Of a DNA stretch of 64,000 nt, positions 20,327-60,409 are shown in pieces. Numbering within the stretch: the first letter of the stretch is position 1; every line of letters begins with the position of its first letter. This stretch comes from Naegleria gruberi (taxonomy: Eukaryota), in assembly GCA_000004985.1 (NCBI GenBank), contig GG738873.1. One strand, 5' to 3'. Under the pieces are notes generated by a model. It worked only from the letters and a program-made list of their open reading frames with translations. It made no database searches and was not told where the DNA came from. A program made the position numbers and the translations under genes.

Positions 20327-22007
20327 TTATTCTCGTGGTATTTTAATACGTTCTGTAACTCTTCCAAACAGATTTACAAATGAAAGTTCCATAATATTCG
20401 AAGATAATCTTATATAGATAAATCCAGATTCTTGTTGGAATTTCTTCAAGTATGGATGGTGGTTTGAAACATCAAAGCGAACAGCTGATCCAGCTCCAGA
20501 AATGAAATGGTTAAGAGTGTCGTATGGTTTCAAGTATTGAATACTGTGGTCATGTCCTGAAAAATAATATCTAATATCATTCTTCCTAAGGAATGGAAGT
20601 AAATGTTCAATGAGATTTTCATTGTCTCCGTGTGTGGATGCTGAATAGAATGGATGATGTCCAATTGCAATCTTCCACAATGGAATATCACTTTTCTTAT
20701 CATCGGTGGCAAATTCATTCACATTCTTTCTCAAAATATTTGTTCTCGATCTTTCAGAGTTGATGAAATATGAAATGGCATCCTCTTCTCCACTCTCAAT
20801 GTTCTCGTCTAATTGTTTCATAACAGTTTCCATGTACTTTTTTTGAGCTCGAATATCTCTGGTTTTGTGGAGGGCTTCCTTATTCATTTTAGGATGAGTA
20901 TAATACTTGTGAATGAATGGATTAGTATCGAAAAACAAAAATTGAACTCTAAAATCAAAATTTCCAACTAGATTTCCAATAGTGTCAGTTCCATCTTTGG
21001 AAAGAAGTTGAATTCTCTTCTCTGGGAAGTACATTGTCTCTGAAAAATACTCTGATGCAATATATAAACGTTTGGATGAAGAAGGGTGATTGGTATATTC
21101 GATTTGAGCTGCTGGATTGGATCTATAATCTAAATTATTTAATAATATTAATCCAATTATTATAAAAATTATTGAAATTCCACATACCATGATTTCCCAA
21201 AACAGATAAGAATGGAATTTTTTGCAAACTTTCATGTTTGTACACATTTTCAAAACTCTCCTTAAACAAAGGATCATCTACAGATTTTACACCCTCTATT
21301 ATTATTATTAATATTGAAATAATTAAATTTCCACTCCAAACAGTAAACTTACCTTGATAGAAATTATCTCCAGTTGAAATAGCAAAATCACATCCAAAAT
21401 TTTGACAATAATATCCCATCTGCTCTGCAACATGTGACTGATTGAATGCTCCCTTTCTTCCCCAATCCCCAAATACTATAAACTTTAAAAACTTTTCATC
21501 AGATTTTGAAGAATACTTCAAATGCCAATCATTCTTATCATTACTCGAAACAACAGAATAAATTCCAATCTTGAATTGATCCATCTCTTCATCAGTCAAT
21601 ACAAAAAACACAACACTCATCAAAATAATGGTCGACAATATTATCAACAAGGAACAAATCAAACACATGGAAAAATAGGGCGAATTTCTAATAATTCCAA
21701 ATTGTGAAAGTTTTTGATGTTTCTGTTGCCACATTGACAAGAATCCAGAATCTTTCTTACTATCCGAATATGAAGAATAGGATGATGGTAATGTTGATGA
21801 AAATTGGAAAGTAGATGTTACAGTACTCGGATCAGATGAATATTCCCCACCACCACTATTACCCTGTCCACTATTCGATGCTCGGAACATTCCACCACCA
21901 ACACTATCGACACCTACTCCTCCTCCAGCACCTCCAGCACCAGCACCTCGAAATGATAATAAATTATTGCTCGAGAAGGTTTTTCTATTGTTGAGGAGGT
22001 GAGCCAT
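20327..22007 (-). CDS. acp5: purple acid phosphatase (tartrate-resistant acid phosphatase type 5-like), membrane-anchored; minus-strand exons 22007..21188 and 21129..20327
   Basis: It has the metallophosphatase motifs GDWG, GDNFY, GNH|D (split by a 58-nt GTATGT..TTTAG intron at 21130..21187), GHHP and GHDH. There is an N-terminal Gly-rich region and a TM segment. Confidence 0.85.
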
Positions 22008-22328
22008 TTTTTTTGGTAATGAAATTGATTTAAAATTGGCAAGTCAGTGATAAATTATAAATTGGTGGAACACGTGTCATTGATGAAGATTGTGTGAAAT
22101 TGGGAAATGTTTTCAGAGGAAAATGAAAAGGATGGAAACAACACAGTTTATTATCACTTTGAGAGCTCAAAAAGATCACCACTCTTTCGAAATTGAGGAT
22201 GATGATAATATTATAGAAAATTTCTCTGTTGCACACAATACTTTCCAACTCCTTTAATATCTTAATATTTTTTTGTAATTTAGTATTAAACATTTTATTA
22301 AACATTTAATTTTCATTTACAAAAAAAA
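22008..22328. promoter_or_regulatory. bidirectional intergenic/promoter region between divergent acp5-like (-) and U-box (+) genes
   Basis: 321-nt AT-rich spacer flanked by divergent start codons. Confidence 0.3.
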
Positions 22329-24401
22329 ATGCCATTCTTTGAAGACTTTCTCACCACTCCAGCACGATCAAATAATACCAATCATCAACCAAAGAAAAAA
22401 CCCACATCCACTAATAACAAACAACAACAACAAAATACATCAACAACACAAATGGTCGATGATGTTGTAGAAGTAAATTCCGATGATTCCGATGCCATTG
22501 TTTCATCACCCTCCACTGCAACTCATAAACGAAGGATTCCCAAAGTATTAAATCATACCAAACCCATTGTTGTTATTGATGATAAAGATGAGAGGAGTAG
22601 CAGTGGTGCTGCTGCAATTGTTATTGAAATTGATGATATGACAAAGCCTAAGGTGAAGAGAGAACGTTCGGATGATGTGGTTTTTGTATCATCAAAGAAA
22701 GTGGTGGTGCAATCGACTTTATCGGAGCCTTCAATTGTTGCATCTTATAATAATAATGGAAGCAATAATAGTAATAATATGAATAATATGAATAATATGA
22801 ATAATAGTAGTAGTACTTTATCAAATTCGACAACTACAATGGGCAGTACTGTTGCAGCAATGACACAAGAAAAATCACAATCTAATAATTCATCGATTAA
22901 TAGTGGAGAAAAGAGCAATCATTCCTCTAATAATTTGGAAAGTAATAATTCGAGCCAGTTTTCACAAGTTTCAACGAGTGCTAATAGTGCTATTACTACT
23001 ACTGTCCAGACTACACCAATAGGAAACAATAATTCCAGTAATGGCGTGGCAGTTGTAGGTTCGCCCGATGTCATTGCCAAATTACCAAAACCTAAAATTG
23101 AGGAAAATTCAATAATACCATCATTACAGCAAGCTAATCCTATTGTGAATAATCAACAACAAATGGGAAATGTCAATGCAGATATGAGAAATAATTCGAA
23201 CCCCTCTATAACAAGTGGAAATAATCAAACATCACAACAGAAAGATAACCTCAATCAAGTGACTTTAAAAATTCCAAATAATTCCACACAATCTGTTAGA
23301 ACAGTGAGCCTAACTTCTTCAAACATTCCTCCTCAACAACAGCAAAATATTGCAAAACCAAAAGAAACTATCCCAACAGTACCAACTCCACCTTCTCCAA
23401 TTTTCCAACCCAACCAAAATCCTGTAAATACCAGAATACCAAGCCCTGCTAGCAATGTAACAAATCCTACCAATCAAATTAACAGACCTGTAAATAATAA
23501 TTTAACTATCGAACAACTCACGCAACAAACTCTAATCACAATTGAAAATTTGAAAAGGAGAGTTGAGTTTAGTACTGTGTCATGCCCTGTAACACGAAAA
23601 ATCGTTACTAATCCAGTTTTGGCTAGTGATGGAATTGTATATGATAGAACGTTCATTCTGTCCTACATTTCTGAGCATGGAAGTTATAGCCCTATAGTGA
23701 AAGGATGTAAAATAACTGAGTCTTCTCTCATTAATGTTGATAGCATATATGCAAAGGCTGTATTAATGATTGAGTGTAGAATTTCAAAAATAATTGAAAT
23801 ACTTCAAAGCCCTGATTTTTTAAAGCTAGCTCCCTTAATACCGGAAAATTATTTGGATTTGATTAAGTTTGCTTTGGATTTAATGGCAGAAGGGAAACTA
23901 AATACACCTTCCACACCAAAATTTATTGAATTTTTAAGAAAGAACAAAGCCAAGTTACTATCTCATTACAGTTCCAAGTTGAAACAACAAGGGAGAAACG
24001 ATCAATCGTTGTACATACTTATGGAAAGTTATGAAATGCACAAAATTGGATGCCACTGTGACGATATTGCTTCTGTCATAGTTTCACTTTTGACTGAAAC
24101 TAAGGAACAAAATGTTGTGAATGAGGAAAAGAAAGCAGAATTGATACGAGATCTTTTTACGATTTCAAATTTGTCTCTTCCTAAATTATTGACCTATTTT
24201 AATATTGAGAAAGATTTTGCCATAATATTGGACATACTTTCAGTAATGATCAAACGAAACATGTGTAGATATGAGGCAATTTCAACTTTTATAATTCAAA
24301 CAATAACTGAGATCAATAAGGGAGAAATAGACAATCCATTTTACAAACAAATTTTGTTTTTCAGGGATCAATTAGTGATTTGCAGAAAGGAAATGGAATA
24401 A
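22329..24401 (+). CDS. U-box domain protein (putative E3 ubiquitin ligase) with long Asn/Ser/Gln-rich N-terminal region
   Basis: The U-box consensus appears at VSCPVTRKIVTNPVLASDGIVYDRTFILSYISEHG. The start context is aaaaaaaaATG. Confidence 0.75.
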   Translation: MPFFEDFLTTPARSNNTNHQPKKKPTSTNNKQQQQNTSTTQMVDDVVEVNSDDSDAIVSSPSTATHKRRIPKVLNHTKPIVVIDDKDERSSSGAAAIVIEIDDMTKPKVKRERSDDVVFVSSKKVVVQSTLSEPSIVASYNNNGSNNSNNMNNMNNMNNSSSTLSNSTTTMGSTVAAMTQEKSQSNNSSINSGEKSNHSSNNLESNNSSQFSQVSTSANSAITTTVQTTPIGNNNSSNGVAVVGSPDVIAKLPKPKIEENSIIPSLQQANPIVNNQQQMGNVNADMRNNSNPSITSGNNQTSQQKDNLNQVTLKIPNNSTQSVRTVSLTSSNIPPQQQQNIAKPKETIPTVPTPPSPIFQPNQNPVNTRIPSPASNVTNPTNQINRPVNNNLTIEQLTQQTLITIENLKRRVEFSTVSCPVTRKIVTNPVLASDGIVYDRTFILSYISEHGSYSPIVKGCKITESSLINVDSIYAKAVLMIECRISKIIEILQSPDFLKLAPLIPENYLDLIKFALDLMAEGKLNTPSTPKFIEFLRKNKAKLLSHYSSKLKQQGRNDQSLYILMESYEMHKIGCHCDDIASVIVSLLTETKEQNVVNEEKKAELIRDLFTISNLSLPKLLTYFNIEKDFAIILDILSVMIKRNMCRYEAISTFIIQTITEINKGEIDNPFYKQILFFRDQLVICRKEME

Positions 24402-24419
24402 ATTTATTTAAATTGGCAG

Positions 24420-26750
24420 TTATCTATCTGAAGATGAACCAACATTTGATTTTTTCAAAGGTGGCTCAAGAGAAGAAGTAGGGAAAGATGGGAATGGTGA
24501 AGGAGTCCAAGGAGCAAATGGGTTTGATGGAAGAGGAGTCATACCAGGGAAAAGACCAGGGTTCAAAGGGGAAGGATGAGGCATTTGACCCATTTGACTC
24601 ATAGCGTTTGACATATCTGCAACAGGCATTGGTTGCATTCCATGATAGCCTAGAGGAGTCATAGGTTGATGATGGTGATGAACTGTATGAATTGATGGTT
24701 GTTGTTCATGTGCTTGAAGGCCAAACATTTCAATCTTATTTCTATTAAATCCACATTGGAAGAAGAAGTGATTGTCTTTTTCTAACCATTTCTTTTCTTC
24801 GATATCAAGTTGAATATCAGGATCCATGAATTTTGCTTGACACTTTCCCTTGATACTAACCAAAGGACCATAGTGCATATCTTCATGAGTAAGGAAGATT
24901 TCCTTTTCACATGGATAATCATGATGTTTTCTACATTTTGATTGGTTTGTTGCTTCTTCGATATTACATCCAAATCCTTGTAAATCACTCCATCTGTAGT
25001 ACCATTGCCCAACAAATCTCATTTCATCATTCTTTGTTTGAACAAAGTTTACAATTTTACAAACCCAATATTTTTCGATATCTTTTCTTTCATCAAGAGC
25101 CTCGTCCTTATCTTGTCTATCCTCTGAATCACAATCCTCAGGAGAGACAAAAACTATATCGTTAACTCGGTAAACAATTCCATCCTTCAATAAATGAGCA
25201 TAAAAATAGTCTCCATTATCATTTAATCCAACAGGTTCACCTAGCCAAGACATTCCTGAACTCATTGGATAAAGTTGTGCATTTGGATCGTGAGAAGAAT
25301 ACATTTGAGGCATATGATTTGGGAACATTGGAAGGAATGGATTATACATCATATTCATATCATTCATTGGCCATGGATTGGCATTAGGATCAATATATGG
25401 ATTTGGAGCATACTGGTTAATCATTTCTCCTTCCTCAGGTTGAGTTTCCTTTTTTCTCTTTTTTGTTGTTGATCCCTTTTTTGTTTTTTTACCTGTTTGT
25501 TGTTTTGGTGAAGTACAACCTGTAGTAAATTTTGAGTAATCAACTTTTGTTGTAGTGGTACAGGCCTTTGTTACAACCTTAACTGTTGGATTGAGAGGCA
25601 TTGGTTGATTCAAATATTTGGAAATGTTAGCATCCTTTTTCACAAAAGTTTTGAATTCAGCAGAGAAAATTGTAAAATGATAATCATCAGATGAGTCTGT
25701 TGGGGTGTACTTTACACAAAGTCTGAAAGGCATATATTGAAATCTCTTTGAACAATATAAACTATTGATACCAAAACGTATTACAATTTCTTCATCTGAT
25801 GATCTATGTAAACTAGAAATATTAATAGTAGATTTGTCTTCTGACTTTTTAGGTTGGGAAGATCCTTTCTTTTTTGATACAGTTGCCTTCTTTTTCTTTG
25901 AACTTGTTTTACCATCAGCAACTGGGGAAGTAGGATCTTCTGGGAAAACAGGGATACGATCATTATATCCCATTACAAGAAACATATCAATTCCTTCCAT
26001 AATTTTAACTTGATTCTTTCCAGCAAATATCTTTTCACTACAAACAATTCTAACATCATACTTATGTTTCCATGTAAGTGTATAAAGTACTTCTGGGAAT
26101 TCTTCTGTGAATGTGGTGTGCCTAGAACCCTTAACAAACAGTCTAACATTAAATGTTGGAGCATGTGGGTTATGTTGTTGTTGGTGAAAATGTTCGGAAA
26201 CTGTTGTTCCTGAATTAGGAAGATTAGGTTTTTCATCTTGATCACTTGGGATACAGTATTGACTCCAATCCAATCTTGTTCCGACACTGATGCAATCAGT
26301 TACATAATGTTCATATACTATTGGTAAGTGGTATTTCAAAGCATGGTTAATTCTTTCTTTGTCATGATTGTTAGAGTTAGGAGTTATAAGTATATTAACT
26401 TTTTCATTTGGAGCATCAAAGAATTGACCTCCATTAGAAATAATTTTAAACTTTAAATCTTCAAGATGTGGATCTAAAAGAGCCTGAGAAAAACAGACAA
26501 GAAACCCTTCGAATATCTTTTCTTGAAGCCCAAAATGGGAGTTATACATATCATTAGTTGTCTCTGCAGCTGCTTGAACAATTACATGTTGGTCAGTTGC
26601 TGTAGCAGAGTAATCATTATGTTGTTGTTGGTTTAATCCCTCCGAATTATCTAAAATAAAACCTTGGTTATATGATGATGATTGTTCTGATGACACTGAT
26701 TCATCATCGGTTCTTTCATCGTCTTCAGTCTTAAAATTTGTAATGTTCAT
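24420..26750 (-). CDS. BRCT + BAH domain chromatin-associated protein
   Basis: The N-terminus has a BRCT-like fold (FEGFLVCFSQALLDP...LPIVYEHYVTDCI). The C-terminus has a BAH-like segment (GDYFYAHLLKDGIVYRVNDIVFV...YWVCKIVNF...RFVGQWYYRW). Pro/Met-rich tracts are also present. Confidence 0.75.
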   Translation of the reverse strand: MNITNFKTEDDERTDDESVSSEQSSSYNQGFILDNSEGLNQQQHNDYSATATDQHVIVQAAAETTNDMYNSHFGLQEKIFEGFLVCFSQALLDPHLEDLKFKIISNGGQFFDAPNEKVNILITPNSNNHDKERINHALKYHLPIVYEHYVTDCISVGTRLDWSQYCIPSDQDEKPNLPNSGTTVSEHFHQQQHNPHAPTFNVRLFVKGSRHTTFTEEFPEVLYTLTWKHKYDVRIVCSEKIFAGKNQVKIMEGIDMFLVMGYNDRIPVFPEDPTSPVADGKTSSKKKKATVSKKKGSSQPKKSEDKSTINISSLHRSSDEEIVIRFGINSLYCSKRFQYMPFRLCVKYTPTDSSDDYHFTIFSAEFKTFVKKDANISKYLNQPMPLNPTVKVVTKACTTTTKVDYSKFTTGCTSPKQQTGKKTKKGSTTKKRKKETQPEEGEMINQYAPNPYIDPNANPWPMNDMNMMYNPFLPMFPNHMPQMYSSHDPNAQLYPMSSGMSWLGEPVGLNDNGDYFYAHLLKDGIVYRVNDIVFVSPEDCDSEDRQDKDEALDERKDIEKYWVCKIVNFVQTKNDEMRFVGQWYYRWSDLQGFGCNIEEATNQSKCRKHHDYPCEKEIFLTHEDMHYGPLVSIKGKCQAKFMDPDIQLDIEEKKWLEKDNHFFFQCGFNRNKIEMFGLQAHEQQPSIHTVHHHHQPMTPLGYHGMQPMPVADMSNAMSQMGQMPHPSPLNPGLFPGMTPLPSNPFAPWTPSPFPSFPTSSLEPPLKKSNVGSSSDR

Positions 26751-27021
26751 ATTATTATATACTATCTAGTCGTCCGATTATAATCAGCCAACTATTCCAA
26801 GAACCGATGATAGATGATGTTAGTCAAAAAATACTATTTATTATCCAGCCAGGAGAGAACACTTTTGTAGATGAGAAAGTGTTGGGTGTGATGATATTTT
26901 TTTATTTAATAAAATAAATATGTATTTTTATTTGCTGGCTAAAATACCGCCCAAATTATTTTCCACTGATTGCTTCTTCTTGTAATTGGGCCTCAAAATT
27001 TATTGCAATAAAACTAATTTA

Positions 27022-28128
27022 TTACCACTCTAGAGATTTATCTTGGGATGGCTTCTTATCTTGTGGTGTTGAGGCAGCATCTGTTTGAGATGAAGATGAT
27101 GATTGTTGTTCAATCTCTTTGGCCATTGCTTCTCTACCTGCTCTTGCTTGACCATGAGATGAGTATAAAGTAATTCTGGCAGTACCCTTGTTAAGACCTT
27201 CAAGGAAGACACATGCTCTACACAATTCTTGACTACTAATATAACCACACTTGACACAGTTCATCAAAGTTCTCTTTTTTACAGTGGAATCCTCTGAGAT
27301 TGTTTCATTGGTAAATTCAAATTGTTCAGCAGATTTAACAATATCAATAATTGTTTGAGGTCGTAATTGTTCCAAATCCTTGATAAGTTCTCTAGCATGT
27401 CCTCTGTAAGCATTTGGAGAATAAGAGCACTCAGTACTAAAGTAATCTAATTTCTTAAAATAGGCGTAGAGAACAATTTCCTTTTGATAAGTATACTTGA
27501 ATGGTTTGGCTCTTGGAATGCTAAAACCTCCTTCATCATGTGTAATAATATCAACACATCGTTCAAGTCTTCCAATATCTCCTCTAAGAATATTCATCAA
27601 AACAGTTTCAGCAATATCATCGGCATTGTGACCAGTTACCATCTTGTCAACCTTTAATTGTTCACATCCTCTATCAAGTGCTTGTCTTCTGAAAACTCCA
27701 CAGAATGTACAGTTATTCTTCAATCCGATTTGTTGAACAATTTCATCCATTGACCATCCATATAATTCTTTATAACTTAAAATTTTGAGAGGTACTTGAT
27801 ATTGCTCTCTATTTCTTTTAACTGTTTCTAAACTATCATCTCTATAACCTTTAATACCTTCATCAATACTCAACAAGTATAAATCCAATCCGTAATTATA
27901 TCTTTCATTCAAAACTTTCATAATATGTGCCAACGCTGTAGAATCCTTTCCACCACTAGCAGCAATAGCAACCTTATCTCCAGGTTTAAATAAATTATTA
28001 TTAATAATAGTTTCATGAATTTCCGTCTCGAACAAGTCAAAGAAACATTCCCTACAAATGAGGGCTCCGTTCTTTGGTCTTTTAAGTGCTGCGTTTCTAG
28101 AGTTGCAGTTTGCACAAGGCTTTGGCAT
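27022..28128 (-). CDS. ctu1: cytoplasmic tRNA 2-thiolation protein 1 (Ncs6/CTU1)
   Basis: It has a PP-loop SGGKDS and CxxC zinc-finger pairs (CANC...CREC; CVKCGY...CRAC), with full-length similarity to Ncs6/CTU1. Confidence 0.9.
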
Positions 28129-28342
28129 ATTTTTTTTGAATTTAAAATTTATTCTTTGTTGAGGCCAAATTTCAAAATTGCATATTCAATTATTAAAAAA
28201 TTGTTTATTAGGAAAGATGACCAGTAGCTTTATTGGAATTAATTTTTTATTGAAATAATCTTTAAAAAGATGCTTTACAAAAATATGAACCTTGATATAT
28301 TTCGACTAATTAGAAGAATAATCACCAAACAAGCCTAAAAAA
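28129..28342. promoter_or_regulatory. bidirectional intergenic/promoter region between divergent ctu1 (-) and F-box (+) genes
   Basis: 214-nt AT-rich spacer between two divergent ATGs, each in an A-rich context. Confidence 0.3.
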
Positions 28343-29422
28343 ATGCCACCAAGAAAGAAATCAGCCAAAAAGAAGGAAGAGGAAGAGAGTGACGAAGAAA
28401 TACTAGAAGAACCAACCGAATTTAATATTACAATAGATGATGATGTTAAACCTTTCACAAACGAATATGATGAATTAGTTAGATTTGATTCTCTCGAAAA
28501 GCTTCCTTCCGAAGTTGTATTTGAAATATTTAGCTTTTTACCTTCTATTCCATACTATTTTAAATTGCAATTGTTGAGTAAATTCTACAAGGAAAAGTTT
28601 CAAGAAATTATTACCCAAACAAAACATTTAGATCTTGCACCACTCAATCTTCAACATCATGCAATTTGGCCTAAAGTATGTCAAATGATCAAAGATTGTG
28701 GATCTTCATTAAAGAGTATTCAATTTGGAGAATTAAATTACAAATGGAATGAAATCAAGGAAGCAATTCTAAAGAAATGTTCCAAATTGGAAGAACTTGC
28801 ATTAGTAACTCCTACCATGTACTTTACTTCATTATTCAGAAAGGATGGCTCTTACTATGGATATTATGGTGGCCCTACTGTTGACTACTCTGAAGATAAA
28901 AAAAACAGAGATGTATGGTGTGATACTCTTACCACACTCAATGTGATTGGTTTAGAAAAGCCAAGAAAAGGCAGACGAAATCATAGTTACCTTCTCACAA
29001 GTGCCACTTTCAAATATATTCTTGAAAAATTCCCAAAGCTCAAAAATATTAATTTCATTCTTACTAATTATACAGAAATGCAAATTCAATCTCTTTATGA
29101 TGCAGTTGTAAGAAATAGAAAGAGATTACTTGAGTGGAGAGAAAAGGGTGGTAGTACTGATGGCCTTTATGAACGAACTGGAATTTGGTATGAAGAAGCT
29201 ATTGGAATTGTAGATTTTGATATTCCACACGATTTGAAAATCAATGTACAAGGAAGTATTGGAAAATTATCATCAATCGATGCTGCTAAAAATATTGTAG
29301 AAGTTTACAATATCAATCCAAATACCAAGTTTGAATTCTTATTCCAGAAGAATTCAAATGGTACATTACTAGATCAAATTATTGGTAGCCGTGCTGCTTA
29401 CAAACAAAAACATCAAGGTTAG
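28343..29422 (+). CDS. F-box / LRR-like protein; probably continues via a 38-nt intron into the ankyrin ORF
   Basis: An F-box is present at LEKLPSEVVFEIFSFLPSIP. The ORF ends ...CAAG|GTTAGT, a good donor at 29418. Confidence 0.7.
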   Translation: MPPRKKSAKKKEEEESDEEILEEPTEFNITIDDDVKPFTNEYDELVRFDSLEKLPSEVVFEIFSFLPSIPYYFKLQLLSKFYKEKFQEIITQTKHLDLAPLNLQHHAIWPKVCQMIKDCGSSLKSIQFGELNYKWNEIKEAILKKCSKLEELALVTPTMYFTSLFRKDGSYYGYYGGPTVDYSEDKKNRDVWCDTLTTLNVIGLEKPRKGRRNHSYLLTSATFKYILEKFPKLKNINFILTNYTEMQIQSLYDAVVRNRKRLLEWREKGGSTDGLYERTGIWYEEAIGIVDFDIPHDLKINVQGSIGKLSSIDAAKNIVEVYNINPNTKFEFLFQKNSNGTLLDQIIGSRAAYKQKHQG

Positions 29423-33949: not shown

Positions 33950-34858
33950 ATGTCCAATTTATTCAATAAAGTAAAGAAGCTTGTCTCATCAGCAGCATCG
34001 ACAATATCGGGATCCTCAACAAGAACATTCGTTGGAAAAGATATCAAGGGAAATAGCTATTTTTTGGAGGTGGATACAGGAAAGGAGAAGAGAACTGTAG
34101 AGTATTCTAAAGGCTATGATACCTCTGCTTTGCATTTACCTCAAGATCTTCCATTGGAGTGGGTTTCGTGGTTAAAGTATTTACGTGAAAAACCACCAAC
34201 AGAAAAGGAATCCAAGATTTTGGCTGATTATAGAGAAAAATTAAAAGCAAATGGAGAAAAGTGGGATGAAGAACAAAGAAGACTCTTTTTACAAAATCAA
34301 GCAAATGAGGGAAATGCTAGAAATAATATTAGGAGTGAAAATGAAAATTATAGACCAAGTGATACACCACCATCTTTCCAATTTGTTGCAGATCGTCTCA
34401 AAGAAGAGGGAAAACTCTCTAATGAAGCTGCCACTTTGACAGAAGAATTTGAAGGTGGAGACAAGTCACAAAATGTAAGACTTTCAAAGATGTTATCTGC
34501 AAGTGGAGAATTGAAATCAACCTATTCAGCTAAGGAAATGGAACAATTGAGGAGAGGATCTAAAATTGCACAATACGAGGAAGAGCAAGCCAAATCAGAA
34601 AAAGATCCATTTGCTCATCTCATTCCAGATGCCAGATATAAGAGAAATCGTACTGATGAAGATGTTCAACAACTTCTTAACCAAGCTGCTGAAGAATTTG
34701 ATTTACCAAAGGATATGAGAAATCCATCCAATCTCACTCAGGAACAAATCAGAAATGTATCCAAACATTACTCAAAATCTAGAACTAGTCCTTTCCTTGG
34801 TAAGAAACCACAAGTAAGAGCCAATTCTGGATTTGTAAATAATGAAGAAGAAAAGTAA
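33950..34858 (+). CDS. ndufaf2: NDUFA12-family protein, NDUFAF2 (mimitin)-like complex I assembly factor with acidic C-terminal extension
   Basis: It shows VGKDIKGNSYFLE...PLEWVSWLKYLREKPPTEKE, matching the GxDxxGNKYYE...W..W...R..PPT.EE signature. Confidence 0.65.
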   Translation: MSNLFNKVKKLVSSAASTISGSSTRTFVGKDIKGNSYFLEVDTGKEKRTVEYSKGYDTSALHLPQDLPLEWVSWLKYLREKPPTEKESKILADYREKLKANGEKWDEEQRRLFLQNQANEGNARNNIRSENENYRPSDTPPSFQFVADRLKEEGKLSNEAATLTEEFEGGDKSQNVRLSKMLSASGELKSTYSAKEMEQLRRGSKIAQYEEEQAKSEKDPFAHLIPDARYKRNRTDEDVQQLLNQAAEEFDLPKDMRNPSNLTQEQIRNVSKHYSKSRTSPFLGKKPQVRANSGFVNNEEEK

Positions 34859-34976: not shown

Positions 34977-37228
34977 TTATTTGCATGAAGAGTTCTTACA
35001 TTGTTGTTTGAAGAAAACAGTTCCCTTCTCAATCAATGAAGAAACATATTCATCACTGGTTGGATACATTTTTGGCTTAATGAGAGATGAGACTTTGACT
35101 TGATGTCGAGGTTTTCCATAGAGATCAGCCAATGCTTCACTCGGTAATAAATACCATCTCAAGTGGCCGTACTTGGATTTGAAGCCATAGGTTTCTTCAT
35201 CTCCAAATAGTTTTGTAATTTCTTCCTCAAAATCCAAAGTAAAGTTATTATTCTTGACTAGCTCAACTGACTGATCGAGTAATTGTTGAGCATTTTGTAA
35301 AATATCGGCATAATTGTGTAATTTCTTTGGTTCTGAGGTAAATAATTGATTGAACTTTTCAACAAATTCCAATTGACCATTTTGGAAAGTCACATCTGTC
35401 AACTTCTTTCTGTGTTGTGTTAAAAACTTGGTGAAATTGGCATGAATTGGTGCTGAATTGGAATCGAAATTTCTGTGCATCCATTCGTTTGTCTTTTCAT
35501 TGAAAATATAATAAGGCAAAAACTTCCAACCATGCGTGGCCACAAAATCCATCGCATTAAGTATAAAGTCCACCATCTTGTCATCGAAAAAGTAATTGAA
35601 ATTCAATCGTATCCATCCAGGTTTCAAATGAACTAGTGAAATAGGACTCTTATACGATTCCAATAAGGCTCCCTCCAATTCGTGAACTTCCTCTTGTGAA
35701 ATACCGAGAATTTCCTCTCCATACGGACCTGCACAAGCACAGCCACTTCTCGTCTGAATTCCAAACAAATCATTCATGAGTAAACTAATGAAAGAGTGGT
35801 GCAAATAATAATCACCATGTTTGACTAGAAAGGAAAAGAAGGCCAATCTATCAACTCCTCCCATTGATGCTTTCTTGACCTGGTCCTAGAATGTGTAAAT
35901 TTGGATTCCTACTCAAGAAATCAAAAGCCCTCTGTCTGTAATTCTCCTCAATTTTTGTAATCAATTCAGCTCCAACATCTTGTTTCAATTTGAATGCCAA
36001 GGCACATCGAATTGAGCCAATAATATCTGGAGTGCCTCCTTCCTCACGTTCCTCAATGATATTGGTATAACTATGATTGTTGGCATCAACAAAATAGACA
36101 GTTCCACCAGCTGGTCTATTTGGAGTCTCTGGAAATACAATTTCAGTCAACTACTAGAGGAAAATTTCAATACTACTTACTATTTTGGAATAGTTTCTTC
36201 TTGGCAACTAAAACACCAGGTGTTCCAGGGCCTCCAATAAACTTGTGTGGTGAAATAAAGATGGCATCTTTCTGATACATTGGATCATTTCTTGGATTCA
36301 TGTCAATTGGAACGTATGGAGCTGCTCCAGCATAATCAAAAAAGCACAATGCTCCAAATTCATGACTTAACTTTGAAATTCGATCACAATCTGTCAAAAC
36401 TCCGGTAACATTTGAACCAGCACTGAATGAACATATCAAAACTCGTTTTCCATTCTTGTACTTTTTCAAACATTCTTCCAAATATTCAAAATTCACATTT
36501 CCAAACTTGTCTTCAATAATTTGCACCACAATGGCTCCAACTTCTCTCCACGGCAAAATATTACTATGATGTTCATACGGTGATATAAACACAACAGGAA
36601 TCTCTTCATGACCACTAGCATTCTGAACTAGTTCTCTAATACCAATACAATGTACCAATGTTGAAATAGCCGAAGTACTTCCACTTCCTTGAAATAAGAC
36701 AACATCCGAATCTTCACCACCACTCAATCTTGCATTCACACATTCAGCAATAATTCTCCTAGCATCCTCTCTGAAATGAGTTGTCTGAAATCCACTAAAC
36801 GATGAAGTAGTATGTGTATTTGCATAGGTAGGTAAAACTTCCTCAAACAAATAATCTTCAATGAATTTGAGTGGTTTTCCAGAGGCAATATAATCACAAT
36901 AGGTTAGTGGAAGAAATCTATTTTCCTCAAATGGAGTTCTAAAGACTGCTTCACTTCCAATGATATTTTCATGAATATTCTTGATGAGGGAAACCTTGCT
37001 TTTCACAGTTTGCTTTCTGACACTTTCCTTTTCAAATTGTAAAGTTTCGTCTATTATCTTTTCTAATAACTTGTATTCGATAGAGTGTTCATCAAATGGT
37101 CGACTACTTCTTTGAGCCATCGTTCTCTTTGGACGAGTTAGTACAAGTGTCTTTTTGAACTTTTCAATTTCTTCGTCTGCATTCACCTTACGTGAGGATG
37201 ATGTAATTGTAATTTGTTTGTTTCCCAT
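34977..37228 (-). CDS. class V aminotransferase / cysteine desulfurase-like PLP enzyme; minus-strand exons 37228..36181, 36128..35880, 35854..34977 (last junction uncertain)
   Basis: A PLP-lysine context SPHKFIGGPGTPG is present. A 52-nt GTAAGT..TTTCCAG intron (36129..36180) restores ...LFQN|K|TPNRPAGG. RSGCACAGPY resembles the SufS R.GHHCA.P site. ORFs 35851..36150 and 34977..35864 are offset by one frame; see findings. Confidence 0.75.
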
Positions 37229-46417: not shown

Positions 46418-47867
46418 TTAGACCTTTCCATTTTGACTAACTGGAACAACATCGAACGACAATTCATTTTCCAAGAGAATTCCCTTAATAACAGTTGATG
46501 GTCCAAGATTTTGGGTGGCATTAGAGAGGACAATAGTACCATTGGCAAACCATGATGACATATAACCAGTGTAAGAACCTTGAATTCTTTCCAAGAGAGC
46601 ACCAGGATAAGCTGGGGTAGCAACACTCTTACGGAGTTGTTCAATGATTGGAGTGAAAATAATTGGGGCATTCTTGAGAGCAATATTGTTAGCAACTGGA
46701 GAGTTCAATGAAGCCAAAGTGATCATTACAAAATCAAGTTCTGGAACAACCAATGGTTTGGCATTGTAGCCGTAAACAGAACCTCCCTTGGTCAAGTAGA
46801 ACAAGTTATTTTTGTCATCATACATGGTTTCAAAAGCACCCAAACCAATGGTGAATGTAGCATCGTTAGCCAAGAAGGTTGGCATGATGAATTGTCTCAT
46901 GGCATCCTTTGAAATTGGAACAGGGCACGCAGTGGCATTGTTAAGAGAGCTATAGGTGAAACAAGAGAAGAATTTTAACATATCATTAGCAGTACTGTAC
47001 ATGCCACTCTTGGGCCAACAACATGGTCAAATAATCTGGATCTCTACCAACAACCATCTTGGAAAGAATATCAGAAGAGTAATCAAATCCAGTGTTAGTC
47101 ATGCCCAACTTGTCGAAAATGTTAGTCTTACAGAATTCTCTGAATGATTTACCTGTAATCAATTCAAGAACTCCACCCAAAATGGTAAAGTCAACATTAC
47201 TGTAATAACGATCACTTATGGATGGAGCCATAAATTGCAACAAGTCAACTGTGGTCTTTCTGTATTCATCAAAAGTCATACTGCAATTATATGGATCACA
47301 AGGAGAAGTTCTAGACAAACCAGCACCGTGACTCATTAATTGTCTGAAAGTAATCTTGTTAGTTGCTGTCGTAAAGTACTTGTTAGTATATTGAAAGTCT
47401 TTAACATAGTTAGTGATTGGTTCATCAATACTCTTAATAAGACCCAATTCTTGAGCAATCAAAGCAGCCATACTGGTAAAAACTTTAGTGACAGAGGCAA
47501 CTCTAAAGATGGAATCGGCAGTTGGAGTTTCAGTTTCCTTACCCTTAGTACCAACTTGACCAACACCTTGGTTCATAACAACAGTATCTCTATATTTGGC
47601 AAGAATAATTCCGGATCCATTCTTTACACCATTGTCAACCAAAATAGATTTAACCATATTATTCTTGAGTTCTGTTAAAGCAGATTGAAGAGTTGAAACA
47701 TCAATTTCTGCAGATCTTGGAAGAATGTTACATTTAGGGTTTGCATCAGATGCCTTCAATACTCTGACTTGAGACTTGAGAGATCTAGCACTTGCCTTTG
47801 GATTGACATCAGAACTTATCTTAGTGTAAGCAACGAACCAATCAAGACCTGGCATCCAGAAGTACAA
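46418..47867 (-). CDS. beta-lactamase/transpeptidase-like serine hydrolase with C-terminal lipocalin-like domain; minus-strand exons 47867..47052 and 47008..46418 (43-nt intron proposed)
   Basis: It has SxxK (FRVASVTKVF), YSN, HGAG and GMYSTANDM motifs. Overlapping ORFs 46986..47867 and 46418..47002 differ by one frame. A GTTGGT..CCCAAG intron at 47009..47051 would give ...ILSKMV|SGMYSTANDMLKF. Confidence 0.7.
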
Positions 47868-49012
47868 GTTGCCACATTTGAGAATCTAAGAACTTCATTT
47901 CCGTAACCTCCCTTAAACAATGTCAAAGAATCGATATATGCAGCTTCTTGAATATCTCTAATAATGAAAGCATTATTTGGTTGGTAATCCAAATCAAAAT
48001 TAACATAATTTCCACCCAAATTAATGTTCATAATAGTTTGACCATCTTGATAATACAAAGTGGCATTGGTTCCATCAGCATTACACAAATAGGTACCTTG
48101 GTACTTGGCTTGATCTTGAGCTGGAGGTAAAACAAATGCTGGCATGACAGAAACATATTGACTCATAAGTGTTCCAACAGCCTTAGCATAAATTTGTTCA
48201 GCAATATATGTAGCAAAGACATCTCTATTGGAAGAAATTGAAATGATTGCAAACTTGTATTCTGGAACAAAGATCATGTGAGTAGAAAATCCGAGAACGC
48301 TTCCTCTCTTAGATCTCTTCCATACGTTATACTTGCTATCGTGACTCATTTCAAAGGCAAAACCAGTTGCATTTTGAGCGTCTGGAGAAATATATTGAGG
48401 AGTGAAAAATTCACGAACAGTTTGACGAGTAAGAATACTTTCATCATTCAAGATTGAGGAGGCATAATAGGTCAAATCTTGCAATGTAGAGTAAGCATCC
48501 ATGGAACCTTCACACCAACCAGACTTTAATTCAGAATCGAATGTGATAGTGGCATTGCCAGCATAGCTAGGAGCAACATGAGTGGAAACAGTGAGGAGAT
48601 CAGAGACGAGACCAGAGTTGGACATGGAGGCACTTTTCATTACATCCTTAAGATTAGAAGAGACGGATTGACCATTAATTTTAGCAAGAGCTTGACTCAA
48701 CCAACAATAACCAAAGTCAGAATAAACTGGTACAGAGTATGGTTCATGTACAACTGAAGAATGTCCAGGAAGACCAGAAGCAGCCATTGCCTTAACAACT
48801 TCATCATTAGAAAGATTACAATCAAATAGTTTGCAAGGAGCTTGTCTTCCGAGACCACTCATGTGTGTGGACAATTGTCTCAAAGTAACAGAGGAAATTG
48901 GAAACTTGGAGAATGTACTAGTGAGAGCATCATCGAGTTTCAACTTTCCAGCATCTCTCATTCTGAACATTTGAGTAGCAACCAACAATAACGAAAATTT
49001 CGTAAAAAGCAA
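47816..49012 (-). CDS. beta-lactamase-like paralogue lacking the N-terminal ~100 aa and the catalytic Ser (LFTK in place of SVTK); pseudogene or non-catalytic paralogue
   Basis: It aligns to the neighbouring gene from the helix after SxxK through the lipocalin-like C-terminus. The frame opens only at 49030 after a TAG. There is no room for an upstream exon before the next ORF at 49037. Confidence 0.5.
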   Translation of the reverse strand: MLFTKFSLLLVATQMFRMRDAGKLKLDDALTSTFSKFPISSVTLRQLSTHMSGLGRQAPCKLFDCNLSNDEVVKAMAASGLPGHSSVVHEPYSVPVYSDFGYCWLSQALAKINGQSVSSNLKDVMKSASMSNSGLVSDLLTVSTHVAPSYAGNATITFDSELKSGWCEGSMDAYSTLQDLTYYASSILNDESILTRQTVREFFTPQYISPDAQNATGFAFEMSHDSKYNVWKRSKRGSVLGFSTHMIFVPEYKFAIISISSNRDVFATYIAEQIYAKAVGTLMSQYVSVMPAFVLPPAQDQAKYQGTYLCNADGTNATLYYQDGQTIMNINLGGNYVNFDLDYQPNNAFIIRDIQEAAYIDSLTLFKGGYGNEVLRFSNVATCTSGCQVLIGSLLTLR

Positions 49013-49036: not shown

Positions 49037-51271
49037 CTATTTTTTTTTATTTGCCAAAATTTCTTTCAATTTTTTGAATACTGATTCTCTCTCCTTTCCT
49101 TCATCTGTAAACGAAAAACCATACAACAACACATTTGAAGGTGGAATACGTGTATTTCTATTTTGAACTCCAAAATCCTCAAATTCTTTTGACTCATCAT
49201 TCCATTGGAGCACAGAGAGATGAATTCTCTCATCATAATACAATAAATATTTTCCAACCTCATAATAATCTTGGCTCATTTGAGTTTTAAATGCAACCAG
49301 TGTTTCCAATTGTAAATGTTTTAGAAATTGTTTTTTCTTATCAGGAACAAAGTAATCATGAGATGAAATTTGAATTCTACTTCTTCTAGTGGTTTCTTCA
49401 TTAATGGTGACAGAGTTATTCGAAATTGAATTTTCTGTCAACCAAAAATCCAAATTGGTTTCATTGGAAAATAAAGACTTTGTTTTTTCTATAAAATAAT
49501 CTTCATACCATTTCCAAGTTGCATCTGCAAGCATTGATTTGATTTTGTTTAATCCTTTTAATAAATCTAATTCGAAAGCTGGTGGTGTGATAATGTCAGG
49601 AACATTGTTAGGTACAACATTATTTCTAAATATTTCAATAACTCCATCCTTTCCATTCAATCCTACCCATTTAGAATTATCATAATTAAATTCACGAACT
49701 TGCAAAACAGGTTTGTCATTTTCCATTTTAATTTTAAATCCATGAAAATCAGAAATTCCTTTAAATGTATTGACATTATCTTTAAATAAGGATTTAAAAT
49801 CAAACATTCTTTCTAAAAATGATATTTCAGGAACATTTTTAGAATAAATTTCTTTCTTTTTTTCAATAAATTCAAGAGGACTATGACATGAATTATTTTG
49901 AAAATAAATTGAATGAATTGAAAAAAATTGATCTATATCAGTATGAGTATGTCCAACAATCATGGTGCCAATAATTACTTTTTTTACCCACCCCAAACTA
50001 ACTAATAAACCTGCGAATGCTACAGCGTACTTGTTTTTGAGTTCTTTTGAGCAATTGTCTGCTTGTAAATACAGAATTGATGGTAAATTTCCTTTTTCTT
50101 TTTTTAAATTATATAAATATTCATACAGAACTGTTAGTGCCAAATTGGCTCCACCTTCACAATTAGGAAGTTTTAATTTAATCTGATATTTTCTTCCATG
50201 TGAAATTAGTCCATAATTTGATATGTTTAATTTTTTAACAGCATTACTATTTTTAGTAGCATTGGCAATTACTGGATATGGTGTTGCTTGTGCACCATCA
50301 ATTATTATAGATAAATACTTGTTTGGATTAGCTATTGCTTTTTCTATTTTTTTTTTAAAAACAAATCTTTCTCCACAACATTCATTAATATGTTTGGCTC
50401 TTGCTTTTTTTGCTTTTTCTTGCTCAACTTCATTTGTTGATCTCTTTAAATTATTTAATCTAGCACACTCATCACATTTTCCTAATCTAGTATTTTTTGG
50501 TAATTTAATATTGGGAAATAAGTTTTTTGCTTGTCTTTTAAAAGTATCCAACCTATAGTAAGCACCTTCTTGTGATGAGACATATATTTCATATATTGGT
50601 TTCCAAGTATTGAAACCAGTAATGTGCATTTCATTTGCATTAGGTAATGGTTCAGCAAAGTTTTCTGCGAATACTGAAAACCAAGATTTAAAATTTGTGA
50701 GCTTTTCACTATCTTCCTTAATTGGTGAATGTTGTTCGTCAATTTTAGATAAATCAGTCTTTTTGGATTTTTTCAATTTATATGAAGAAATACCATAAAT
50801 ATTTTTGAACATTATTTCACAAACAGGTTTTCCGTTAATTGTATAGTTGTTTGAGTGTTGTGTAATATTTCCAACAAATTTCAACTTGTCTTTTTCCTTC
50901 AATCCTGCATAGAATGTTCTTTTTTCAGTTATTTCCGAAATTGTAAAATTAGTATTGCAATGCTTAACGCAACAATTTTTCAAGATACATGAGGAAATCG
51001 CATTATCATTCAATAATTGTTTTGATTTTTTTCCTAATTTTTCCTCTGGTGATCTTAATCTTCGTTTTGTTGATTTGTATGTACGTTTTGGTTTTGTATT
51101 AATATTGGCAATCTCTGATGAATTAGTATTATTATTAATATTTTTATCACGATTTAATTTTAAATAAAGATTAATTGGTGATTCATCCTCTAATTCCGAG
51201 TTATTAAAATCTTGATAATTATTATCATCATTGTCCTGTTGAAAGTATGAAAGTAATTCACTTGCAGACAT
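49037..51271 (-). CDS. 744-aa ORF with DDE-transposase-like motifs and Cys-rich N-terminus; candidate transposase or domesticated derivative
   Basis: Motifs include SIIIDGAQATP (cf. the Harbinger/PIF first D), ~78 aa, YLQADNCSKE (cf. the DNA second-D motif), ~39 aa, then the acidic cluster GHTHTDIDQ. The N-terminus has CILKNCCVKHC...CDECARL. The ATG sits in an A-rich context and the ORF is intact. Confidence 0.45.
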   Translation of the reverse strand: MSASELLSYFQQDNDDNNYQDFNNSELEDESPINLYLKLNRDKNINNNTNSSEIANINTKPKRTYKSTKRRLRSPEEKLGKKSKQLLNDNAISSCILKNCCVKHCNTNFTISEITEKRTFYAGLKEKDKLKFVGNITQHSNNYTINGKPVCEIMFKNIYGISSYKLKKSKKTDLSKIDEQHSPIKEDSEKLTNFKSWFSVFAENFAEPLPNANEMHITGFNTWKPIYEIYVSSQEGAYYRLDTFKRQAKNLFPNIKLPKNTRLGKCDECARLNNLKRSTNEVEQEKAKKARAKHINECCGERFVFKKKIEKAIANPNKYLSIIIDGAQATPYPVIANATKNSNAVKKLNISNYGLISHGRKYQIKLKLPNCEGGANLALTVLYEYLYNLKKEKGNLPSILYLQADNCSKELKNKYAVAFAGLLVSLGWVKKVIIGTMIVGHTHTDIDQFFSIHSIYFQNNSCHSPLEFIEKKKEIYSKNVPEISFLERMFDFKSLFKDNVNTFKGISDFHGFKIKMENDKPVLQVREFNYDNSKWVGLNGKDGVIEIFRNNVVPNNVPDIITPPAFELDLLKGLNKIKSMLADATWKWYEDYFIEKTKSLFSNETNLDFWLTENSISNNSVTINEETTRRSRIQISSHDYFVPDKKKQFLKHLQLETLVAFKTQMSQDYYEVGKYLLYYDERIHLSVLQWNDESKEFEDFGVQNRNTRIPPSNVLLYGFSFTDEGKERESVFKKLKEILANKKK

Positions 51272-51510
51272 TTTTTTTGGAAATATTTTTGACTAATTAA
51301 GAAAATTAAAATACAAGAAAATCACAATAATTGATTTATTCTCTTAAAGTATATAATTTAAAACCAAAAACAATTGGACAATTATTTGGTAAATATTTTC
51401 AGCCGAAAAGCAATGCAATTTTTGTGAAAAATGATTCATCATTAAATTCCGAATACAATTTAATTTTCAAAGATGTTTATTTAATAAGGCATTAAAATTG
51501 ACTAAAAAAA

Positions 51511-53501
51511 ATGTCTTCAAGTGAATCATCACAATCAACAAGTAACGAAATACAAGAAAATGTTGTTGGTGATAATATTTCATCATCAAAATCCAACAAT
51601 AATTTACCATCGTCCACTAGTACTTCTGAATCAACAATTGATGTTCATGAATCGACACCCGATTCATCTAAAATTCCGGAGCAAACAACTAACAAGCAAA
51701 ATTCAGAAGATGAGAACTCCTTTGAAACCTATTACAAATTAGGGGACCCTGTAAATATTAAGGGAAAACCAACTGATCTCTTTAAAAGCATTACTATCAA
51801 GAATACTGGAAACCAACTAATCAGTGAATCTGTTGTACGATTTAAAAAATCCAACATTTCATCATTATTTTACATTTTAGGAATTAAAAAATTAAAAAAG
51901 TCATTTAAGGTGTGTGGAATTTTAGAAACGGATTTCAGTAAAACCACTGATCTTGATCACGAGTGGTTGGAATTGGTTGACGAGAATGATAAGAGTGTAA
52001 AAACATTTAAAACAAGAATTATTAAATTAAATGAACAACCAACCAAAAAAAATTCCAAAAGCAATTCTGTTGATACCTCCTCCAAGAATGAAGGTAGAAA
52101 ATATGAAACAAGATCATCTAAAAAGAAAAAAACAGAAGAAGAAGAACATGTACTTGAACAAGAACAACAATCTAATTCCGAATCTGAAGAAGAAGAACCA
52201 CCTCCAAGAGTAGCCAGAAAAAAATCAACTAGAAAATCAAGTAAAAAATCTGAATCAGAAGAAGAAGAAAAAGAGGTTTCTCCAAGAGTAGCCAAAAAAA
52301 AACAACAACAAGAAAATCAACAGGTAAAGTAGGAAGGCCAAAAAAGTCCGAGACTGTTTCAGTGGATGATGATGACATTTTATTTTCAGATATTTTGTCC
52401 AATAATTCTAAACCTAATTTAAATTCAAATACTATTAGTAACAGCTCAGTCAAATCAGTCACCAAACCAACCAAATTAAAAAATAATTCCAATAATTATG
52501 ATGATAATTCAAATAATAATTTAAATAATACTTTAATCAAATATGATGAAAATTTAAATACAAATCCAAATACTAATAATAGAAATATTTTCAGTAACAA
52601 CAAATTTAATAATAATAATAACAATAATTTAAATTATAATAATACTAATAATATCAAAAATTATGGTAATAATAATTATAATAATTATGATAATGTTATT
52701 GACTTAAATAACTCACATAATTCAAATAATTTTATTTTTAATTCAAATACTAATACGGAACAAAATTGTTACAACAGAAACAATTTCAATTCAATTAATA
52801 ATAATTTTAACAATAATTACAATCCCAATAATTATGAAAATGTATCAATTTACAATTCAAACAATAGAAATAATTTTTTGAATTATAATAATAATTTTGA
52901 CAATCATCATTTAAGCAATGATAATTCTAATAATTATTCAAATAATTTCAGTGCAAATAAATACAATAATATGAATAGTCATAATAATTATAATAATTGG
53001 AATACCAATGACAATATTTCAAATAATTATTTAAATAATAATAGAAATAATTTATGGAACAATTTCAATTCTAATAACAACTATCATCCAAATGCTAATA
53101 ACAATTTTACTAATTATCCAAATAATAATACTAACAATTTTAATAATTATCCAAATAATAACAATTTTAATAATTATGCAAATAATAATAATTTAAATAA
53201 TTATGCAAATAATAATTATAATAATTGTAACAACAATACAAACAATGGTCCTATTAACCTCCATAACAACACGATGATGAGTGTGTTGCATCATGTCAAT
53301 AATATGATCGACAATGAAATGGATTTCGAATTAAAAATGATGATTAACAAATTAATGGATAAATTAAACCAAACAGAGGAAAAAAACACTTTATTGAAAT
53401 TAATTGGTTCAACCAGGAATTTACATTATAGAACCCCAGGTAATTCCGAGAAAAACTCAAAATTGAAAGAATTACTATTCAAACTTCTTAATGATGAATA
53501 A
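51511..53501 (+). CDS. low-complexity nuclear-type protein: Ser/Lys/Glu-rich N-half plus Asn-rich (prion-like) C-half; two ORFs joined near 52294..52362
   Basis: ORF 52362.. starts at GTG and has no in-frame ATG, while its frame is open back to 52254. An internal repeat (PPRVARKKSTRKSSKKSE versus SPRVAKKK/TTTRKSTGKVGRPKKSE) indicates that the second frame is coding from the A9 run at 52294-52302. Confidence 0.7.
52440..53270 (+). repeat. Asn-codon (AAT/AAC) rich low-complexity coding tract (N/Y/F-rich prion-like domain)
   Basis: The tract runs from NNSNNYDDNSNNNLNN through to NYANNNYNNCNNNTNN. Confidence 0.7.
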
Positions 53502-59236: not shown

Positions 59237-60409
59237 TTCTTTCGATACTACCAAGATGGGTAAAGGATAATTTTGGAAGAATGGTTTGCTACGAATAGAA
59301 TGTTGTGATGAATTTGTTTTTATTTTTCTTTGAGATTATACAGTAGAATATTACAAGAATTAGAGAATCAATTCTATTTAGTAATATGATTTTTAGAAAA
59401 GTTACAACATTGTTCAACAAGAATCAATTTACTGGATTTTATTACCATGTCCAACACAAAATATGGGCTTCAGCTTATATCATTACATTTAGTGAAATAC
59501 CTCAAAATTTATTTCTTGACGTTTCATTTACCTTTCCATCACGATTAGGATTGAACGTAGATCCTAAAACATTACAACTTTATATTTCAAACTCAAAACA
59601 GGAAAGAATTTACAACTATCACTTGTAATCAAATAACACTGAACTGGACTTTAAATTCTTCAGACAATTTAAATTCCAATTCTTTCTCATTCACTCTCCA
59701 AGCAGATAAGGTAGATTTTATAATCAAACCTTCAGAAACCTTTAATTTCACATTCCCTGCTACATTAACAGTTCAAGAATCCGAAAGTTCAGCATTTTCT
59801 TCATTGAACGTTAAACCAACTCTTGGATGCAATGTACAACCTTTTGAAATTATCACGAAATCATTTCCAAGAGATTTATGATAGTAATCACATGTTCCTA
59901 AGTTGGTTGTCAGATCGAAAAGAAATGACAGGGAAAGAAGAGGACTTTTACAATAGTTTTCTTTCTTCAATACTTAACAAGTTTAATATTGGCAGCCAAA
60001 ACCCTTAAATGAATGTCTTGCAGAAATGGTATACAATCCAGAGAATAATACTCTATTTTTAATGAGGATTCAGAATGTTAAGTTTTAAGTAATACAGTTT
60101 TTGTCTTAGGAAGTATTGGATTAAAATTATTGTTAAAAAGTTTAAAATGTAGCCCTTCCTAATTTAATTTATTAATTATTTATGGTGGTACACCAAAGGA
60201 AGACCAAAAATCAATACAACATGATTACAACAACTGCACCAATCGTTGTGATGGTCAAGTGTCCAATCAAATGCTGTGCTATTACAAAATCAGAACAAGG
60301 CGTTTAACAAAAAATATTGACGCAAAAAAATTTTTTAGGAATTTTTGCCATCATATTTACCCGTCATCACGCATTAAAAAGAAATACAACAACAACACCA
60401 AGCAAGATC

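Follow-up and report, generated by a model that had tools for sequence, protein, structure and literature searches.

What interrupts the reading frame of a class V aminotransferase gene in Naegleria gruberi? The gene lies in a stretch of 64,000 nucleotides of contig GG738873.1 (the window), which is gene-dense, has 33.8% GC and uses the standard code. A preliminary description of this DNA had proposed a 25-nt mini-intron within the gene and, as a fallback, a 1-nt insertion or deletion. The fallback stands and the mini-intron does not: the gene carries one surplus base, or a deficit of two bases, within a continuous coding exon, and nothing is spliced out at 35855..35879. The surplus base most likely reflects an artefact, and a real mutation is the less likely source.

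Three ORF segments at 34977..37228 on the minus strand form one gene, which encodes about 732 amino acids when its frame is repaired. Its features are these:

36181..37228, minus strand: exon 1, with the ATG start at 37228
36242..36253, minus strand: the PLP-lysine motif SPHK, in conserved columns upstream of the break
36129..36180, minus strand: intron 1, a genuine intron of 52 nt with 31% GC (GTAAGT...TTTCCAG)
35863..36128, minus strand: first part of exon 2, in the zero frame, ending GPGQESIN, the N codon AAT being 35863..35865
35860..35862, minus strand: the lesion site, a GGG run (CCC on the plus strand) with one surplus base
35855..35879, minus strand: the candidate mini-intron GTCAAGAAAGCATCAATGGGAGGAG, GT...AG, rejected as coding sequence
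35848..35853, minus strand: zero-frame stops, TGA then TAG, which would end a truncated product of 441 amino acids
34977..35861, minus strand: second part of exon 2, in the +1 frame, from GGVDRLAFFSF to the stop at 34977..34979
35733..35750, minus strand: the catalytic-cysteine motif RSGCAC, in conserved columns downstream of the break

The repaired protein is a SufS-like class V aminotransferase. It matches Pfam PF00266 with 121.8 bits (the gathering threshold is 21.5) over residues 127-486, which extend across the repaired junction, and it has a C-terminal extension of about 240 amino acids. The nearest solved structures are cysteine desulfurases, with best PDB matches at E = 1e-24 to 1e-17. 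Group II cysteine desulfurases of the SufS/CsdA type (PDB 8d8s, 5b7s, 1t3i; TIGR01979) have the same PLP fold, and the SPHK lysine motif and the RSGCAC cysteine-loop motif are common to both, but the window protein differs in its additional C-terminal domain and in the greater length of its loop at the break. Its scores fall below both curated cut-offs for the SufS family (TIGR01979, 122.7 against 475.1 bits; NF006791, 73.3 against 661), and the protein is SufS-like, not SufS. With the predicted PLP lysine and the active-site cysteine loop both in place, it is predicted to be a PLP enzyme of the cysteine desulfurase type.

Splicing of intron 1 joins LFQN to KTPNRPAGGTV, which has the same length as LFxN-xVPxRPGGGTV in homologues, and the N. 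lovaniensis and N. fowleri genes also switch frame at this position. A homologue from a heterolobosean-like contig (P0007, a raw ORF call) has an unspliced insert of 20 residues, read through at the position of intron 1 (36129..36180), which indicates that the position of the intron is conserved beyond Naegleria. Five spliced gene models of the window have no exact match among annotated proteins, so the introns in the window are supported by splice consensus and frame restoration, and intron 1 by homology as well. Just past this intron, at residues 351 and 356 of the repaired protein (about 36105..36125), PGGGTV has become RPAGGTV (amino acids GGG to AGG) and a conserved V has become T. The GGG of this motif is kept in 59 of 59 homologues, and the two changes may reflect functional divergence of a second gene copy.

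That the window gene is such a copy follows from a comparison with its relatives. We aligned 60 homologues, and the best matches in the protein collection are proteins of N. lovaniensis (C9374_007073, here P0001), N. gruberi (P0002) and N. fowleri (FDP41_007771, here P0003). P0002 is an intact paralogue of 793 amino acids, named “aminotransferase”, on another scaffold. The window copy is 62-66% identical to these three proteins, and P0002 is 71-72% identical to those of N. lovaniensis and N. fowleri, so the window gene is the more divergent second paralogue. It shares with all three the PF00266 domain, the C-terminal extension of some 240 residues, the position of intron 1 and a clade-specific loop, GPGxExI..GG(V/L)xxLAFFSF. 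By contrast, the three proteins read this loop in one frame, whereas the window copy has one surplus base there, and the long N-terminal extension that they possess is missing in the window copy. Apart from the gene itself, we found no synteny with the N. lovaniensis and N. fowleri loci.

The position of the frame break can be stated to the base. The minus-strand ORFs 35851..36150 and 34977..35864 do overlap and differ by one frame, as originally described. The overlap is 14 nt. The former ORF has 99 amino acids, with a C-terminal end of ...NLHILGPGQESINGRS before its stop, and the latter has 295 amino acids, starting with MGGVDRLAFFSF... The tblastx comparison agrees: the single frame of the N. 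lovaniensis and N. fowleri genes matches frame -2 of the window down to 35863-35866, and the same single frame matches frame -3 from 35876 downward. The conserved residues GPGQESIN are in the zero frame and GGVDRLAFFSF in the +1 frame, and the switch occurs exactly at the G run, where the preliminary description had correctly suggested looking for an indel. Formally, 35862 is the base left over between codon AAT (35863..35865) and codon GGA (35859..35861). One surplus base in the G run is equivalent to two missing bases just upstream.

Codon usage in 20 window ORFs (13,154 codons) puts the switch at the same place, because the zero-frame codons are scarce and the +1-frame codon is common. GGG accounts for 3% of Gly codons and AGG for 8% of Arg codons, and the dicodon GGG-AGG does not occur once; GGA is the commonest Gly codon (50%), and the +1-frame dicodon GGA-GGA occurs seven times.

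Homologues are colinear across this junction. In the nearest of them the loop has the consensus ILGPG(K/R)E(C/S)I..GG(V/L)KKLAFFSF, and in the alignment GQESIN of the window stands opposite G(K/R)E(C/S)I(S/A/E) in the Naegleria proteins. At the site of the break, the single-frame reading is ILGPGKECISKGLKKLAFFSF in N. lovaniensis and ILGPGRESIEKGGVKKLAFFSF in the N. gruberi protein P0002. Similar single-frame strings occur in P0004-P0007 and P0017, which are raw ORF calls from heterolobosean-like contigs, and 48 metagenome loci are also colinear here. We measured the spacing of the loop as the number of residues from the G of ILG to the S of FFSF in 59 aligned homologues, where it is 10-17. 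Removal of one base from the window gene gives GPGQESINGGVDRLAFFSF and a spacing of 16, as in N. lovaniensis and N. fowleri. With two bases added, the spacing becomes 17, the value of the N. gruberi paralogue P0002 and of five other homologues.

Apart from the break, the gene is intact and selectively maintained. The downstream frame is open for 295 codons without a stop, in DNA of 34% GC. Among the columns that are conserved at 90% or more, 109 of 114 are kept upstream of the break and 39 of 42 downstream, where the three changes are conservative. Thus, 148 of 156 conserved columns are kept; the eight deviations are as many as in the intact paralogue P0002 and fewer than in several other eukaryotic homologues. 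Identity to N. lovaniensis is 70% upstream of the break and 71% downstream. A test for a decayed pseudogene found a single lesion and no relaxed constraint. The truncated 441-residue product would lack the catalytic cysteine, which lies downstream of the break; given this and the lack of decay, purifying selection has acted on the gene up to practically the present. The single lesion, the kept columns and the open 295-codon frame exclude an old pseudogene, and of the pseudogene readings only a very young one is possible.

The gene is apparently unannotated. We found no near-identical protein for it in the protein collection. The spliced, repaired and truncated models have no exact match there, and exact look-ups of the 295-aa and 351-aa ORFs also returned nothing. 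Neighboring genes do have protein records, namely EFC43463 (NDUFA12-like, 33950..34858) and EFC43548 (CTU1-like, 27022..28128). These two belong to a set of six window ORFs that match proteins of N. gruberi strain NEG-M (EFC/XP records) exactly, which identifies the window as DNA of that strain. The frame break is probably the cause of the missing record.

Beside the mini-intron, two origins of the extra base had been offered, a real frameshift or an inserted base in the assembly; one of them is almost certainly right, and both survive our analysis. We regard the surplus base as probably an indel that arose in base calling or in the consensus of the 2010 Sanger whole-genome-shotgun draft. The true gene would then encode about 732 amino acids and read ...NLHILGPGQESINGGVDRLAFFSF..., and the surplus base would lie in the G run at 35860-35862, between AAT (N) and GGA GGA GTT (GGV). 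The colinearity of the homologues across the junction and the absence of decay both speak for such an error. Draft assemblies of this kind (8x Sanger coverage) have consensus error rates of 1e-4 to 1e-5, so one lesion in about 45 kb of coding sequence is as expected. Three points count against a consensus error. A run of three Gs is not a classic error-prone homopolymer, the presence of the intact P0002 means that loss of the window copy could be tolerated, and the absent protein record is compatible with annotators having judged the locus defective.

No further frameshift was needed at the junctions examined among the roughly 20 window ORFs of at least 300 amino acids, and most of the ORF junctions tested proved to be conventional introns. 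This survey set aside the pairs 51502-52329/52254-53498, 60163-60435/60308-61492 and 22033-22305/21138-22043. Overlapping or adjacent open frames occur at 51502..53498 (plus strand), 60163..61492 (plus strand) and 20327..22305 (minus strand). GTAAAG is the one strong donor at 52324, and the acceptors with which it pairs lie at a distance of 23-29 nt. In the 540-aa metallophosphoesterase model, a hydrophobic stretch, GKFTVWSGNLIISILIIIIEG, resembles a second intron left unspliced near 21260-21350.

One other ORF pair, 47819-49036/46989-47885, was considered as a frameshift and rejected. At 46418..49012 on the minus strand there are two tandem genes of the beta-lactamase family (PF00144), whose overlapping frames imitate a frameshift. 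In the downstream gene of the two, an intron of 46 nt (46950..46995) starts from an unusual donor, GTACTG. Next to them lies an ORF of 744 amino acids (49037..51271, minus strand), in which a DUF7869 domain is recognized at E = 4e-43; one in-frame stop is all that separates this ORF from the next beta-lactamase ORF. The 744-aa ORF may derive from a transposon and, judging from gaps in the accession numbers, probably also lacks a protein record.

We searched metagenomes for a second version of the locus. The metagenome ERR1078381 (PRJEB11402; ENA ERZ929261, Logan) contains contigs that are 98.6-99.2% identical to parts of the window other than this locus, with small indels. Three of these (L051, L052 and L054) match 22473..28576 and represent a second N. 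gruberi-like strain or allelic sequence. A version of the window gene itself was not found in ERR1078381/ERZ929261 by full-length searches, by searches with 149 amino acids centered on the junction or by a metagenome scan. The scan, which used the junction region, returned only bacterial-type homologues with 29-46% identity. The 149-aa search returned only fragments of 124-256 amino acids with 34-63% identity; it missed even the Naegleria proteins, so its negative result is weak. P0125 was considered as an independent copy and rejected, as it comes from an unrelated contig.

The main alternative to a consensus error is that the change is real. A very recent 1-nt insertion or 2-nt deletion in strain NEG-M, or in one of its haplotypes, would make the gene a nascent pseudogene or a null allele; we regard this as the less probable of the two origins, though one to be taken seriously. 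The break does stand in the sequence, and the locus has no protein record. The window copy may be dispensable, since P0002 is intact and has 71-72% identity to the N. lovaniensis and N. fowleri proteins, as compared to 62-66% for the window copy. In addition, the 17-residue spacing seen in the nearest homologues with GGV would agree with a deletion of 2 nt. However, there is no second lesion across the 295 open codons, where 39 of 42 columns are kept, and the parts upstream and downstream of the break are equally conserved, so that a real frameshift would have to be extremely young. Pseudogenes with a single lesion should also be much rarer per gene than consensus errors in a draft. Should the base be real, the gene would represent a null allele of very recent origin or, though this is improbable, a site of recoding.

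Recoding would mean that the extra G is real and that ribosomes make a programmed +1 shift at GGG-AGG-A. While GGG occupies the P site and the rare AGG the A site, tRNA-Gly would re-pair on GGA, and decoding would continue as GGA-GUU to give ...ESINGGVDRL... We consider this very improbable, even though the local sequence resembles known +1 sites in several ways. The zero frame offers GGG-AGG-A, AGG-AGU-U and AGU-UGA-U, whose A-site triplets are those of +1 sites in yeast. Such sites include CUU-AGG-C (Ty1, ABP140 and YFS1), CUU-AGU-U (EST3), GCG-AGU-U (Ty3) and GCG-UGA-C (OAZ1) (PMC12719033). As in yeast, the A-site codon is rare or a stop (AGG, AGU or UGA), the P-site codon could re-pair in the +1 frame (GGG to GGA) and a conserved ORF continues in that frame. 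Rare AGG (8% of Arg) and abundant GGA (50% of Gly) fit this scheme, a shift at GGG-AGG-A keeps the conserved GGV, and the downstream ORF is fully conserved. The P-site codon differs from those in yeast, and the shift is conserved in no relative. There is no frameshift in the three Naegleria proteins, in P0004-P0007, in P0017 or in bacterial homologues, whereas programmed sites are as a rule recognized by being conserved among relatives, as YFS1 is (PMC12719033). We detected no stimulatory RNA structure downstream, where the sequence folds no better than when shuffled (z = 0.03), and motifs this short could have arisen by chance. In the literature, we found no report of recoding of this kind in Naegleria. 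If it did occur, a nuclear gene of a heterolobosean would have a lineage-specific “saviour” recoding, by which a full-length enzyme is made from a frameshifted gene.

The weakest reading is the 25-nt GT-AG intron at 35855..35879, whose removal would give ...ILGP-V-DRLAFFSF...; we dismiss it, as it would delete GQESINGG, which aligns to conserved residues of the nearest homologues, from a site at which neither N. lovaniensis nor N. fowleri has an intron. What had suggested it is present in the sequence. The GT and AG ends are in place, deletion of the 25-mer yields ...NLHILGPVDRLAFFSF... (in a wider stretch, ...ILGPVDRLAFFSF...) and joins the two frames, and the resulting loop is roughly like the short loop of bacterial SufS-type enzymes. 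The spacing of the spliced product had been said to match the SufS/CsdA consensus exactly. This does not hold for the protein family to which the gene belongs, as the spliced model has a spacing of 8, below the minimum of 10 and the range of 10-17 in the 59 homologues, and its loop would be shorter than in every one of them. Because the nearest homologues align to both GPGQESIN and GGVDRLAFFSF, both halves of the 25-mer encode conserved residues. The earlier reading was misled by the short loop of bacterial and SufS-type enzymes, to which the heterolobosean clade adds six or seven residues.

The 25-mer also does not resemble the introns around it in length, donor or AT-richness. It has 48% GC, as compared to 36% in exons, a GTCAAG donor and a purine-rich acceptor, GGGAGGAG. 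By contrast, the eight convincing introns of the window are 36-63 nt long with 14-31% GC, and seven of the eight have GTAAGT, GTTAGT or GTATGT donors. Very short spliceosomal introns of about 15-30 nt occur in some ciliates and nucleomorphs. The 25-mer resembles these in its GT...AG ends and its length, but the window introns are longer and the 25-mer is coding. A study of Naegleria fowleri used a minimum intron length of 30 bp, based on an assessment of its predicted genes, and gives the average N. gruberi intron as 203 bp and the NEG-M genome as 41 Mb with 33% GC and 1.7 exons per gene (PMC8296547); 25 nt is below that minimum. The GC content and gene density of the window are in keeping with these NEG-M values. 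The claim that no intron of normal size fits the junction holds in practice. Frame-restoring GT-AG or GC-AG candidates of 43-58 nt exist, but each deletes LAFFSF or other conserved residues.

Two observations touch on what the family might do. In oomycetes and other eukaryotes, homologues (P0010-P0014, P0038 and others) have the aminotransferase fused to a PF01171 PP-loop domain. In the window, a CTU1/Ncs6-type PP-loop gene for tRNA thiolation (PF01171 and PF16503; 27022..28128, minus strand) lies about 7 kb from the aminotransferase gene. The fusions and the nearby CTU1-type gene hint that this aminotransferase family supplies sulfur to a PP-loop enzyme.

The locus serves as a caution that a GT...AG stretch that restores the frame and mimics the consensus of a distant family can be coding, which in this case was revealed only by alignment of the nearest homologues. 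Explained as a consensus error, the frame break is an ordinary finding of little weight for biology. Its practical value is for annotation: a repaired model of 732 amino acids with one 52-nt intron, which adds to N. gruberi an apparently unannotated second SufS-like paralogue.
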